Origin: an uncultured Gammaproteobacteria bacterium
GTDB lineage: Bacteria > Patescibacteriota > Patescibacteriia > UBA9934 > CAZDDW01
Length of the DNA stretch: 64,000 nucleotides
Assembly: GCA_965231015.1 (NCBI GenBank)
Contig: OZ246408.1
Coordinates: 545,237 to 609,236 of the forward strand
Reading direction: 5' to 3'
Shown here: piece by piece, positions 59,813 through 64,000 of the stretch
Numbering within the stretch: position 1 is the first letter of the stretch
How the letters are laid out: each line of letters starts with the position of its first letter
The notes under the pieces: generated by a model
Database searches by the model: none
Told to the model about the DNA's origin: nothing
The model's input: the letters and a program-made list of their open reading frames with translations, nothing else
Made by a program: the position numbers and the translations under genes

Positions 59813-61225
59813 CTACACAATCACCTGATTCTCTTCAATCTTGGCCGCTGGCTTTTCTTCATCGTTGGTTTCAATTTCTTTCTCCACCTTTCCCTTAGCT
59901 AGAGCATATTGCTCGCGGACATGTTGGATAATTCTGTCTGTGAAAGACTGGTGTTTTGGTGGTGTCACCGTTAATACATCAGCCGAAAATGGATCCCAAC
60001 GCTTGCCATCAATAGTCATTTTCACATAAATTTCTCGCTCAGCCAGGTTGATCATATCACTAACTTCAAACACGGGCTTCATTTCTTGTTCCATAATCAT
60101 TGCGTCCTCTGCACCAATCTGAAAAGTGATAATGTTGGCTACGTTTCCAAAAAGAGTTGAACGTAACGATGGCAAAAGCTGTGACAAATTTTGGTTTGCG
60201 ACCGTGACACAAAAGCCAAACTTTCTTGATTCAGCTAATAAGTTCTCAAAGGTCTGGGTGGCAATATTTTGAAACTCATCCACATACAAATAAAACGGAG
60301 TTCTTTGTTCTGCCTTAAGAGCAATACGTTGCATGGCTGCCTGGTACATTTTTGTGAGCACCACAGCACCAAAAAAAGCTGATTTATCATCCCCCAGTCG
60401 CCCTTTTGACAAATTCACAAGAAGTATTTTTTGATTCTGCATGATATCGAAAAAGTCGATCTTGTTTGACTGTTGGCCGAAAATATCTCGCACCAAAGGA
60501 TCAGATAAAAGTTGACCAAGCTTGTTTAAAAGCGGAGAAACCGCCTCAGAATCATAACGCTGTGACCATTCGGGAAACTCAATCGCCCAAAAACGACGCA
60601 CCACCGGATCCTTGATGTATTCAATTACTTTACCCCGATACGGGCCACTTGATAGTAAGGACACCATTCCATTAAGTGTTCCTTTTGGGTAATCAATCAT
60701 GGCGAGCGTTGAAAAACGAAGCAAGTGTTCAATGCGCGGTGTCCAGTCACTCGCAAACTGTTTTTTAAAAATCTCAATCAAACCATCTGTCACCATGTGT
60801 TTATCGTCTTCTGGAACATTGGCGATCGGGTTAAAGGATATTGGCCAATCGCGGTCGGACGGATCGATCAGAACCACGTCTTTAAGTCGACTTTCAGGAA
60901 TAAAATCAAGCACGTCTTGAATCAAGTCTCCGTGTGGGTCAATGATGCCAAGTCCATGTTTGAAATGAATATCTGATCGAATAAAGTGCTCCAACAACTT
61001 GGTCTTCCCCACCCCTGACTTTCCAATCACATACATGTGCCGGCAACGATCTCTACGTTTGATACCGAAAATATAACGCTTGGAGGAGTATCCCGAGCTA
61101 AAATTTGTTCGTCCAAATAGGGAAATTTCCTCTGGCCGAATATCATCTTTCGTAGGCAAAGAATCCGGCGGTTCATGCCGACGAGCAACAAAAGTTTCTA
61201 TTTGTTCGTTTCCTCCATTAAACAT
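59813..61225 (-). CDS. VirD4/TraD-like (type IV coupling protein family) P-loop ATPase, paralogue 2
   Basis: Walker A GKSGVGKT, IIDPHGDL, Walker B YLYVDEFQN, and ANQNLSQL. Confidence 0.7.
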   Translation of the reverse strand: MFNGGNEQIETFVARRHEPPDSLPTKDDIRPEEISLFGRTNFSSGYSSKRYIFGIKRRDRCRHMYVIGKSGVGKTKLLEHFIRSDIHFKHGLGIIDPHGDLIQDVLDFIPESRLKDVVLIDPSDRDWPISFNPIANVPEDDKHMVTDGLIEIFKKQFASDWTPRIEHLLRFSTLAMIDYPKGTLNGMVSLLSSGPYRGKVIEYIKDPVVRRFWAIEFPEWSQRYDSEAVSPLLNKLGQLLSDPLVRDIFGQQSNKIDFFDIMQNQKILLVNLSKGRLGDDKSAFFGAVVLTKMYQAAMQRIALKAEQRTPFYLYVDEFQNIATQTFENLLAESRKFGFCVTVANQNLSQLLPSLRSTLFGNVANIITFQIGAEDAMIMEQEMKPVFEVSDMINLAEREIYVKMTIDGKRWDPFSADVLTVTPPKHQSFTDRIIQHVREQYALAKGKVEKEIETNDEEKPAAKIEENQVIV

Positions 61226-61228
61226 AAT

Positions 61229-63067
61229 TTACCACGGAAAAATATCTTCTTCGCCTTTTAATACTTTTGGTTTGTTTTTACTGTCGTCTTGTTGAAATCT
61301 GCTCGGCTTTTTCTTTTTACGCTTCCGTTTCTTCTTTGGTGGAGGAGTTCCTTCCGAAGGCAATGATACAGAATCACTGTCTTTTTTTGATTCCTGATTT
61401 GATTTTTTATCCTGTTTTGGCTGGTCGTCTTTTTTTGGTTGTTCTTTCGGTTTATCATGGCTCTTGTTTAGTGCATCTAACCCAACCTCGACTCCGGGCA
61501 ATTCTTTTTTAACAATCTCTCCTTCAACCATCTTGGGAGATTTCGTCTCTTTTTTAATTTTAGGTTCTTTATACGTTCCTTTTTTCTTTTCTTCCCGAAC
61601 AATTTCTATACAGTCCTCACAATAAATTGGACGATTGCGATCTAGCTCTACCGGGATCGACATATGTTTTCCACAACGAGTACAATCGTAATCAAATAAT
61701 GGCTTTTTACTTTTCTTTTTTCCCGGAGCGTCAGCAGGCATACCCGGCACCTCACCTTCCGGTTCCATTTTAGTCTCGCTCCACTTCATAATCTTGTTGT
61801 GTACCACGTTTTTTGGGTGCGTATAAAGCTCACGTGAACGTGCAATGATTTTTTCAGCGTTACCTGTTTCAAACGCTATTGGTGGCAAGGTGGTTGCAGA
61901 GAACGACTCTGAAGCCACCCCGTCGATCATTAATTTCAAATAAATGTTGTATTTTGGAAGATTTACCAAGTCTTCTTCTGTAAAACGCGGAGCAAATTCG
62001 GTTACCAGTTTCAAAGCGTCAGTGGCTCCAATTCGGAAAGATATAAGAGTTCCCACGTTTCCAAACACGGCCGCAACCACTGTTTCATCCAACTGTTCAA
62101 TATACTGATGAGCCATAATCAAATTCAGATGATACTTTCGAGCTTCAGACAAAATGTTAGCAAAAGATTCGGTGGCAAAATTTTGAAACTCGTCAATAAA
62201 AAGATAAAAATCACGTCGTTTAGGCTCCAACATGTCCACCCGCTCCATAGCCGAAAGTTGAAGTTTGGTGATGACTAATCCCCCAAGCAGGCGACTGGAA
62301 TCTTCTCCGATTCTTCCTTTAGAAAGGTTCATGATCAGGATTTTGCCCCCATCCATAATTTCGCGCGGGTTGATGGTCGATTTTACCTGCGCCACAATAT
62401 TTCGTACCAAGGAGGTCGACAAAAACTGCCCCACTTTGTTTTGAATCGGTGCGATTGCTTCTGACCGAAACTTATCTTGCCATTGTTCAAACTCTGTAAT
62501 CCAAAAACTTTTTACCACCGGATCCTGCAAATTACTAACCATACGACGACGAAAATCTCTGTCTACTAAAATTCGATTAATCCCAAGCAGAGTGTTACCG
62601 GGATTTTCAAGTAACGTCAGAATACAATTGTTCATGATGTGCTCCATTCGCGGACTCCACACGTCCGGCCAAATTTTCTTAAAAACACCCATCAAACCAC
62701 TTGCAATCAAGTGGCGGTGATCATCGTCCACAGCCTCTAAAACATTAAACCCAACCGGATTGTCTACGTCGGCCGGATTAAAATATACTACGTCATTGAT
62801 CCGATGATTTGGAATGTAGTTTAAAACAGTTTCTGCTGAATCCCCGTGCGGATCAACAATGGCGACCCCGTGATTCAAATATATATCGGAGAGGATCATG
62901 TTCTCAATCAGGGTGGTTTTACCAACACCGGTTTTACCAATGATGTAGGTGTGACGGCGCCGATCATCGGTCTTAATGCCAAATTTACGCATCGAATTGC
63001 GAAAATTAGTGCGCGCGAAGTAAATAACATCGTTTTCGTGATCGTGATCGTAAATTCCGAAAGACAT
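61229..63067 (-). CDS. VirD4/TraD-like P-loop ATPase, paralogue 1, with C-terminal CxxC-x17-CxxC zinc ribbon and Lys-rich tail
   Basis: Walker A GKTGVGKT, IVDPHGDS, YLFIDEFQN and AHQYIEQL. C-terminal CTRCGKHMSIPVELDRNRPIYCEDC is followed by a KKKRKRKKKK tail. Confidence 0.7.
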   Translation of the reverse strand: MSFGIYDHDHENDVIYFARTNFRNSMRKFGIKTDDRRRHTYIIGKTGVGKTTLIENMILSDIYLNHGVAIVDPHGDSAETVLNYIPNHRINDVVYFNPADVDNPVGFNVLEAVDDDHRHLIASGLMGVFKKIWPDVWSPRMEHIMNNCILTLLENPGNTLLGINRILVDRDFRRRMVSNLQDPVVKSFWITEFEQWQDKFRSEAIAPIQNKVGQFLSTSLVRNIVAQVKSTINPREIMDGGKILIMNLSKGRIGEDSSRLLGGLVITKLQLSAMERVDMLEPKRRDFYLFIDEFQNFATESFANILSEARKYHLNLIMAHQYIEQLDETVVAAVFGNVGTLISFRIGATDALKLVTEFAPRFTEEDLVNLPKYNIYLKLMIDGVASESFSATTLPPIAFETGNAEKIIARSRELYTHPKNVVHNKIMKWSETKMEPEGEVPGMPADAPGKKKSKKPLFDYDCTRCGKHMSIPVELDRNRPIYCEDCIEIVREEKKKGTYKEPKIKKETKSPKMVEGEIVKKELPGVEVGLDALNKSHDKPKEQPKKDDQPKQDKKSNQESKKDSDSVSLPSEGTPPPKKKRKRKKKKPSRFQQDDSKNKPKVLKGEEDIFPW

Positions 63068-63068
63068 A

Positions 63069-64000
63069 CTAGTTTAATTTATCTTTTACGTCCTCTAGTT
63101 CCGTATCCGGGTCGATTAACAACTTTACCGCATCAGGGATATCTTCTCCGTTTGGTAGAGTTGGGGCGTTTGACTGGTCAGATTTTTTAGCCGGGTCCGG
63201 GTTCTCGTCCACCACCTTACTTTCTGTTGGAGGATTGATTCCTGAAATTTGCGGCGTATCAAAATCCATATTTATATCTGGCTCTGAAAATCCATCAACA
63301 GACGGCTCGGTAGGTAAATTTTGCTGTAGTCCCATCTCACTCTCAACGGAATCACCCTCAATTTCAAAAGTCAGCTCGTTACTCGTACTTGGGATTGCGG
63401 GTGCGCTGGCATTTTCGTCTTCTTCAGAAGCAAACTTAAGTTTAGAGGGCGGTTCAGCTCGTTTAGAAACAGTTTTACTAATAAGCGGTGCCTTGATTTC
63501 AATGGTTGGAAAGTGATAAAGCGTGGCCAATTCTTCAGTGTTAAGCACATAACGTGGCACACCCTTAGCTAAAGATCGGTTTTTATACGCTAAAATAAGC
63601 TTATTGACACGTGACCAGTAAAACCAGCGCTGCCAGAAATAGTCGTCTTTTGGTGTTACGGTTCCAGCCTTTCCGAAATAATTTAAGTCCAAATGGCTAT
63701 ACAGCTTGAAAACACCCTTAATCATGTCATTGCGAAAACCTTTTTTGAACACTTCCTTTTTTCCAATATAAATGTAGCGGCATTTGGTTTCAAAACCGAT
63801 CTTGGATATTTTTTGTACCACTTGCTTAGAAATTTCCCGTTCCTGTTCAGTAACCTTAAAAGCTTTCCACAAATCTTCCATTCCAGCTTTATCGTTAGAG
63901 GTTTCATCAACTCCAACCCCGGAGATATCTTTAACCAGGGCGTTTGAAGCATCAAAAACCCATCCCCCAACCTTTTCGATTCCACTTTTCTTGGGTGGTT
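63069..64000 (-). CDS. Hypothetical protein upstream of the ATPase pair (partial, frame open to the window end)
   Basis: The track starts it at Met 63881. By hand translation the frame stays open to position 64000 (…PPKKSGIEKVGGWVFDASNALVKDISGVGVDETSNDKAGMEDLW…). The C-terminal third is acidic. Confidence 0.55.
   Translation of the reverse strand, partial: PPKKSGIEKVGGWVFDASNALVKDISGVGVDETSNDKAGMEDLWKAFKVTEQEREISKQVVQKISKIGFETKCRYIYIGKKEVFKKGFRNDMIKGVFKLYSHLDLNYFGKAGTVTPKDDYFWQRWFYWSRVNKLILAYKNRSLAKGVPRYVLNTEELATLYHFPTIEIKAPLISKTVSKRAEPPSKLKFASEEDENASAPAIPSTSNELTFEIEGDSVESEMGLQQNLPTEPSVDGFSEPDINMDFDTPQISGINPPTESKVVDENPDPAKKSDQSNAPTLPNGEDIPDAVKLLIDPDTELEDVKDKLN

Follow-up and report, generated by a model that had tools for sequence, protein, structure and literature searches.

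Two VirD4/TrwB-like ATPases lie beside a membrane protein with a predicted VirB4-N-terminal-domain-like fold in a gene cluster widespread in Patescibacteria

We analysed a 64,000-nucleotide (64-kb) stretch of contig OZ246408.1 (positions 545,237 to 609,236), hereafter the window, from an uncultured bacterium placed by GTDB in the Patescibacteriota, and focused on a cluster of four genes on the minus strand at its far end. In the direction of reading these are a gene that runs off the window edge (63069..64000, its C-terminal 309 codons, free of stops up to the edge) and whose product belongs to the Pfam family DUF8128; a P-loop ATPase of 612 amino acids (aa) that we call A1 (61229..63067); a second ATPase of 470 aa, A2 (59813..61225); and a protein of 579 aa with 26 cysteines and a C-terminal zinc ribbon (57696..59435), the fourth conserved member of the cluster, whose Cys-rich family we call CYS. 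Loci compared with the window carry L-numbers. The measured gaps are 1 nt between the DUF8128 gene and A1 and 3 nt between A1 and A2, in agreement with the tight coupling to the upstream gene that the original prediction, made from the letters of 59813-64000, had described. The whole unit is wider than that interval, extending downstream to 57696 with the CYS gene and upstream past 64000. DNA from an identical contig (L001) supplied the region upstream of the window: the complete DUF8128 protein has 554 aa (L001:8335-9999), with its N-terminal 245 residues encoded beyond position 64000, and its gene is preceded by secD and secF. The window holds a compact gene order, secDF-DUF8128-A1-A2-CYS.

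Open reading frames (ORFs) and regular-expression searches agree on two adjacent ATPases sharing one motif series, as first described. In A1 the Walker A motif GKTGVGKT starts at residue 44 (residues 44-51; 62915..62938) and is followed by VDPHGD at residue 71, by YLFIDEFQN in the Walker B region at residue 288 (residues 288-296; 62180..62206) and by AHQ at residue 319; the counterparts in A2 are GKSGVGKT at 68, IDPHGD at 95, YLYVDEFQN at 312 and ANQ at 343. The Walker A columns are invariant in a sequence alignment, as are D292, E293, F294, Q295 and N296, and the Walker A and B motifs of both ATPases are, as read from the sequence, intact. The two proteins are 41% identical over 421 aa (BLASTP, E 2e-120). 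Only A1 carries the CxxC-x17-CxxC zinc ribbon (residues 462-486; 61610..61684), which matches PF23477 and TIGR04272, and only A1 continues into a Lys-rich, disordered C-terminal tail (61232..61609); residues 431-612 hold 40 Lys per 182 residues. Tails of this type are common in A1 orthologues, 53/67 of which have at least one ribbon and 59/67 of which are net positive in this region. A2 ends without ribbon or tail, and lacks the HDHEN N-terminal motif that the A1 family conserves. Hydropathy analysis found no hydrophobic window reaching the threshold for a transmembrane (TM) segment in either A1 or A2.

Both ATPases pass the Pfam gathering scores for TrwB_AAD_bind, T4SS-DNA_transf and TraG-D_C (PF10412 gives 39.7 and 35.6 bits, where 20.5 suffices). 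The curated NCBIfam equivalogs for type IV coupling proteins (T4CPs) were not reached, the best scores being 53.3 bits against 366 (SXT_TraD) and 47.9 against 250 (CD1115). Nor was the VirB4 model TIGR00929 (cut-off 643), which scored 30 bits and over the P-loop only, and an hhalign comparison with TrsE likewise covered the P-loop alone. FtsK_SpoIIIE (PF01580) stayed under threshold, with 16.1 bits against 24 over 28 residues, and no FtsK gamma domain reached it either. DUF87 scored 27.0 bits for A1 and 17.2 bits for A2 (cut-off 23.2), and none of NurA, Sir2 and DUF4297 is listed among the called neighbours. The AlphaFold2 (AF2) model of A1 has a predicted local distance difference test score (pLDDT) of 78, with values near 90 in the ribbon and below 50 from residue 502; it begins with beta strands and contains, between the Walker A and B motifs, a predicted helical insertion with helices at residues 115-278. 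When this model was compared with the PDB using Foldseek, TrwB ranked first (E 4e-10, TM-score 0.60-0.64, over an alignment of about 440-470 columns), HerA, DotL and Cag-beta came next, and the VirB4 C-terminal domain (4ag6) followed at E 4e-6. On this Pfam and structural evidence the VirD4/TraD-like identity first proposed stands: A1 and A2 are VirD4/TraD/TrwB-like ATPases, whose motor is nearer to coupling proteins than to VirB4.

The gene upstream had been described as open at the window edge, with an acidic tail and a product that could not be recognised. The first two points stand, since 309 codons run without a stop and the last 124 residues include 15 Glu and 15 Asp, and acidic tails recur in 28/34 DUF8128 proteins of the Uhrbacteria-like group. 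The third does not: the precomputed label PF26449 (DUF8128) is attached to the full-length partner and to 118/120 listed homologues. More than 2,800 DUF8128 homologues were found, all of them, among the matches listed, unnamed and from Patescibacteria, and a DUF8128 profile recovered 2,937 representatives from a representative library clustered at 50%. Direct searches gave no match in PDB sequences and none, to the VirB4 family CagE_TrbE_VirB or any other, in a Pfam scan at E up to 1, made with a copy lacking the PF26449 model. Hydropathy predicts one N-terminal TM helix at about residues 20-45, followed by a predicted cytoplasmic domain up to about residue 430 and then the disordered acidic tail. 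An AF2 model built from 63 sequences reached a mean pLDDT of 81.8, above 90 in the core and with a disordered C-terminal tail, and the top 14 PDB chains retrieved with it by Foldseek were all TrwK/VirB4 (E 1e-5 to 3e-3). A P-loop is absent from DUF8128 itself, and the listed matches include no P-loop ATPase of any other kind; we infer from this that the similarity concerns the N-terminal domain of VirB4. DUF8128 is predicted to be anchored in the membrane by its TM helix and to fold, on the strength of this model, like the N-terminal domain of VirB4. Kinship with TrsD was considered and rejected, hhalign finding nothing (probability 0.4%).

The two modules also occur within single proteins. 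ORFs of 747 aa (L165) and 744 aa (L105) join a DUF8128-like domain without the TM helix to an A2-type ATPase, and two further fusions (L132, L149) are cut by contig ends; in all of them the DUF8128-like domain is N-terminal and the ATPase C-terminal. The DUF8128 profile aligns with the N-terminus of the L165 protein at a probability of 99.3% (hhalign, E 1.3e-20). The split point in the window coincides exactly with the fusion linker, where the "...AEPP" motif of DUF8128 and the "FG.TNY...FGIK..DRRRH" of the ATPase lie, in that order, within about ten residues of each other. These fusions came to light by analysis of loci and not by the search of the representative library, where the 150 representatives listed are all stand-alone DUF8128 proteins of 218-691 aa. 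A phage family has the same composition: in phrog_5156 (824 profile positions), DUF8128 aligns on 49-295 (E 5e-21), A1 on 400-813 (E 2e-55) and A2 on 402-810 (E 7e-54). Its members include gp27.4 of the Bacillus phage SPO1 (906 aa) and, by tblastn, relatives in SPO1-like phages and in phage D6E, and for gp156 of phage G the match is confined to the ATPase half (query residues 332-679). We regard the fused ORFs of L165, L105, L132 and L149 as the decisive argument for a physical link between DUF8128 and the ATPases. Since such fusions are found in both Patescibacteria and Bacillus phages, we therefore read the gene pair of the window as a putative split VirB4-like ATPase with a VirD4-type engine.

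The gene for SPO1 gp27.4 shares an overlap of 8 nt with a Replic_Relax (PF13814) gene, annotated in the record as 'replication initiation by nicking'. In that record (91819-97329; L166), gp27.4 is flanked by this gene, gp27.3, and by gp27.9, an actin-like partition protein; the three genes look like a plasmid-like DNA handling module in a lytic phage.

The pairing of DUF8128 with A1 is very widespread. A profile scan over one genome per species identified at least 588 loci with the DUF8128-A1 pair, of which 80 were kept for comparison. The original prediction had proposed a lineage-specific system and a check of co-occurrence across Patescibacteria; the first idea cannot be kept with the pair present in at least 588 species genomes, and the check showed an A1 orthologue directly after DUF8128, with overlaps or tiny gaps, in about 70/80 species loci. 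Wherever downstream DNA exists in these 80 loci A1 directly follows DUF8128, with one exception (L065). Across the same loci identity is 59-74% for A1, 38-64% for SecD and 35-46% for DUF8128. The cluster is placed after secDF in 57-60/80 species, and its fixed neighbours are secDF, uppP and mnmA. A2 follows A1 in only 4/80 loci (L002, L003, L005 and L009).

A2 itself is not confined to close relatives of the window, whose organism groups, by the names of its homologues, with Uhrbacteria-like Patescibacteria. Its homologues are 67-90% identical in Uhrbacteria-like genomes and 51-57% identical in Paceibacteria-like genomes (Giovannoni-, Wolfe-, Brenner- and Portnoybacteria). In a neighbour-joining tree rooted with TrsK of pSK41, A1-type ('long') and A2-type ('short') proteins form two deep clades, each containing both lineages and both far from canonical T4CPs; at the level of sequence, A1 and A2 are ancient paralogues. 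The description of the two as tandem paralogues therefore holds for their adjacency and their 41% identity, and fails for any local duplication, as the two deep clades run across different classes. An origin of A2 as a recent tandem duplicate of A1 is ruled out by the search for A2 homologues, by the tree and by six independent A2 contexts.

These six contexts (L083, L085 and L168-L171) were picked by similarity to A2 alone, and DUF8128 and at least one CYS gene are present in 6/6 of them. A1 is found in 5/6, a gene for a sigma70-r4/HARE-HTH protein in 6/6, CutA1 in three and a small TM protein in four; secD and/or secF lie upstream in 4/4 of L168-L171. The order that recurs across lineages is secDF-DUF8128-A1-(CYS)-A2-CYS. 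Typical layouts are secDF-sigma-DUF8128-A1-CYS-A2-CYS(n) and DUF8128-small-A2, with CYS, CutA1 and A1 genes further downstream in the latter.

Two features of these loci stand apart from the cluster itself. The gene immediately upstream of DUF8128 in each of the six Paceibacteria-type loci (L083:4073-5095, L085:615-1643, L168:2739-3749 and also L169-L171) encodes the protein of about 340 aa with sigma-70 region 4 and HARE-HTH domains, which is missing from the lineage of the window. In one genome, genes for a BglII-type endonuclease and a LexA/S24-fused N6/N4 methyltransferase interrupt the cluster and separate A2 from the other members (L169:10508-12754).

The fourth member, CYS, has homologues 22-47% identical beside the ATPases of distant genomes, adjoining A2, A1 or DUF8128 in L002, L005, L009, L083, L085 and L168-L171. 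The window protein has no Pfam match at E 0.1, DUF7101 appearing only at E 0.89; NCBIfam, PADLOC and PHROGs returned nothing, and a homologue searched against PDB sequences reached no better than E 0.11. Its C-terminal ribbon aligns with the ribbon of the A1 tail (hhalign, E 2e-5). A metagenome scan with the CYS profile found at least 499 loci, and in the 79 loci counted for arrays CYS genes occur in tandem in up to 10 copies, with three or more in 37/79. Arrays in L087, L111, L115, L122, L127 and L132 consist of divergent paralogues of about 580 aa with 25-50% identity. Each protein carries two copies of the motif C.NCFGCVGLRNK.YCIFN.QYSKEEY, with zinc ribbons at both ends.

T4CP homologues have been surveyed in Patescibacteria before. 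The passages on T4CP, VirD4 and TrsD in Quinonero-Coronel et al. 2025 (PMC12102498) report 5,713 VirD4-like T4CP homologues in 2,918/3,035 Patescibacteria genomes (96%), of which just 148 lie near virB4, itself present in 2,417/3,035 genomes, and raise as possible an exaptation of these orphan homologues. A1 and A2 fit them, at about two per genome, as the two clades, and on the basis of those passages they are almost certainly the same proteins; this near-universal match, too, speaks against lineage specificity. The same passages contain nothing on DUF8128 as a partner, on the missing TM domain, on two clades, on fusions or on Cys-rich arrays. No paper on DUF8128 was found, and in the literature we came across no account of how the partner folds, of the fusions (those of the phage family among them), of the split into two clades, of the Cys-rich arrays or of the conserved order.

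Compared with known systems, A1 and A2 have the nucleotide-binding domain fold in common with the T4CPs TrwB, VirD4 and TraD, TrwB being the best PDB match. Unlike these, they have no N-terminal transmembrane domain, are not linked to relaxase or mating-pair genes, and come with a VirB4-like N-terminal domain, either as a separate partner or in fusion. DUF8128 and an ATPase read jointly give the domain order of VirB4 (TrwK of R388, TrsE of pSK41), an N-terminal domain followed by a RecA-type ATPase, whereas the window version is split over two genes and, unlike in VirB4 systems, no VirB3, VirB6 or VirB8 genes adjoin it. A tblastn search with TrsE gave no match in 2.05 Mb of related loci. The TM helix with which DUF8128 starts recalls VirB3-VirB4 fusions. 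SPO1 gp27.4 and phrog_5156 contain the same two modules in fused form, but are phage-borne, only about 20-28% identical, and found beside Replic_Relax and actin-like partition genes instead of Cys-rich genes. The plasmids pSK41/pGO1 offer a parallel in TrsD, a separate small protein reported to look like the N-terminus of VirB4, whose gene lies immediately upstream of that for the ATPase TrsE; the difference is that TrsE is a complete VirB4, N-terminal domain included. TraJ of pIP501 is a soluble Gram-positive T4CP without an anchor of its own that depends on a separate membrane protein, much as we envisage for A1 and A2; the pIP501 system is plasmid-borne and lies inside an operon for a type IV secretion system (T4SS), unlike the window cluster. 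We know of no likeness between the partner of pIP501 TraJ and the VirB4 N-terminal domain.

Taken together, these results suggest to us, with a confidence that we would place at about even, that the region represents a compact version of a Patescibacteria-wide chromosomal cluster (DUF8128, A1, A2 and CYS) encoding a membrane-tethered translocation motor built on a split VirB4 plan. DUF8128 would be tethered to the membrane by its single predicted TM helix, and its cytoplasmic domain may bind the N-terminal segment of A1, of A2 or of both, as the fusions and the translational coupling suggest. By the precedent of TrwB, VirB4 and HerA, the ATPases would assemble as a hexameric ring, possibly a mixed one, in which ATP hydrolysis would move a polymer. 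Our committed guess is that the substrate would be DNA or a DNA-protein complex, because of the precedent of the family, the basic ribbon tails, and the overlap of the SPO1 homologue's gene with a Replic_Relax gene near a partition gene. Recognition might proceed via the zinc ribbon common to the A1 tail and the CYS proteins, which would be clients or adaptors, and output could pass through a distant T4SS or by another route.

Several observations weigh against this account. The contact proposed between DUF8128 and the ATPases is drawn from fusions and synteny, and export of CYS proteins as effectors, with or without a distant T4SS, would fit the synteny equally well. The argument for DNA is indirect: T4CPs move proteins too, and VirB4 is not known to act as a DNA pump. 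DUF8128 shows no sequence similarity to VirB4 or TrsD, so that common ancestry is unproven, and neither a fold nor a catalytic motif can be recognised in the CYS family. An ATPase or DUF8128 is in view in just 18/79 CYS loci, most arrays lying elsewhere, and in many ABY1-type loci A2 and CYS do not adjoin DUF8128-A1. Finally, a T4CP homologue of Ca. Southlakia epibionticum, a possible orthologue of A1 or A2, is described in the T4CP passages of PMC12102498 as non-essential where the T4SS is essential.

A bolder form of the split-motor proposal, which we consider speculative and unlikely, would make the cluster a phylum-wide translocation system, so far unrecognised, and a third VirB4/VirD4 branch, with two specialised paralogues on one membrane anchor that export the hyper-expanded CYS proteins as dedicated clients, alone or DNA-bound, to the host cell that sustains these epibionts.

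The strongest alternative, which we consider less likely than the split-motor account, is that A1 and A2 are ordinary T4CPs of a remote chromosomal T4SS resembling the MPF-FATA type, handing substrates, perhaps CYS effectors, to its VirB4/VirB6 channel. DUF8128 would then stand in for the transmembrane domain of a T4CP and dock the ATPases on the inner-membrane complex of the T4SS. The Pfam scores above gathering and the structural match to TrwB are what such proteins would be expected to give, although the curated equivalogs are far from reached (53 bits against 366) and the ATPases bring their own VirB4-like N-terminal domain, a feature of no known T4CP. CYS arrays, as divergent paralogues with a conserved C-terminal module, resemble effector families that share a T4CP-recognition domain, of which the Xanthomonas XVIPCD effectors are one. 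The fixed neighbours are secDF, uppP and mnmA, however, rather than T4SS genes. According to the passages on T4CPs in PMC12102498, virB4 is common in the phylum (2,417/3,035 genomes) and T4CP genes frequently sit at a distance from it, yet T4CP homologues occur in more genomes (2,918) than VirB4 (2,417), only 148/5,713 lie near virB4, and the T4CP is reported to be dispensable where the T4SS is essential.

We think it distinctly unlikely that the ATPases form a housekeeping DNA translocase without a secretion system, acting in FtsK-like chromosome clearance during division or in DNA uptake, with the CYS genes as unrelated neighbours. Membership of the FtsK-HerA superfamily, basic tails with a zinc ribbon, the very high conservation of A1 and its position among housekeeping genes would all suit such a role, as would the near-universal phyletic spread given in the T4CP passages of PMC12102498 and the near absence of the family from 2.9 million viral contigs, where a single marginal match was found. 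Patescibacteria do, however, have an FtsK homologue (one tblastn match, in L121; papers on TM7x also mention FtsK), the FtsK Pfam model falls below threshold (16 bits against 24), as does any gamma domain, and linkage to CYS in 6/6 unbiased A2 contexts is too frequent for chance.

Descent from a mobile element, as its remnant or cargo, or a role in anti-phage defence with a HerA/VirD4-like ATPase, could explain the partial PADLOC matches (mad8 at E 9e-19, and HerA models), the fused homologues of Bacillus phages and the restriction-modification insertion within the L169 cluster, but is very improbable given the constant chromosomal place after secDF in 57-60/80 species, the lone marginal viral-contig match, the absence of any integrase, relaxase or defence effector adjoining the cluster in the window neighbourhood and L168-L171, and a sequence conservation far beyond that typical of defence genes.

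A membrane-tethered, split VirB4-plan motor would be of interest in several respects. Patescibacteria make up a large share of bacterial diversity and live on other cells, and their exchange with their hosts is largely obscure; here the near-universal orphan T4CP homologues would gain a partner, an architecture and candidate clients in the CYS arrays. The combination of a VirB4-type N-terminal domain with a VirD4-type motor defines their likely evolutionary position, which bears on the divergence of the two T4SS ATPases. The homologue in phage SPO1 provides a tractable model in Bacillus subtilis.

The surroundings of the cluster are chromosomal in character. Other genes of the window are ordinary ones, encoding a V/A-type ATPase, methionyl-tRNA synthetase, primase, ligase, LepA and MnmA (Pfam labels and scans), and extension past the edge, which had been suggested as a check, brought secD-secF and further housekeeping genes but no well-understood family with a known partner set. 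As first noted, no VirB-type channel or relaxase gene is nearby: among the called genes of nearly the whole window and 10 kb beyond, Pfam labels name none of the families VirB4, VirB6, relaxase and conjugative pilin. The sole pilus-related genes belong to a type IV pilus, a PilM-like gene (47179-48297) and a prepilin peptidase gene (45459-46250), about 12-15 kb away. A scan for promoters and terminators gave counts no different from those in shuffled sequences. The SecD gene just upstream of the window (L001:5324-7366) encodes rotamase domains, of the PpiC-type peptidyl-prolyl isomerase kind, fused to SecD (Pfam labels).

Elsewhere in the window, positions 12000-16000 have a G+C content of 0.54-0.59, against 0.40-0.47 in the remainder. 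Long ORFs overlap there, on the minus strand at 13305-14948 and on the plus strand at 13326-15056, and another lies beside them at 12178-13089; these ORFs have no Pfam match, and the segment contains no rRNA. It may be foreign DNA or encode an unusual protein.

Between A2 and the CYS gene, on the opposite strand, lies a 73-nt gene called as tRNA-Ser(UGA) (59615-59687, plus). Its variable loop has just 4 nt, in contrast to the long variable arm of tRNA-Ser in bacteria, and the gene is shorter than the second tRNA-Ser of the window (88 nt) and the tRNA-Ser(UGA) of L008 (87 nt). The gene is not at the same place in the relatives L002, L003, L005 and L009. Its product would have a G3:U70 pair, the discriminator A73 and an A:A mismatch in the anticodon stem. 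G3:U70 and A73 are alanine identity elements, and the gene could encode an Ala-charged tRNA reading the Ser codon UCA, or be a decayed tRNA.

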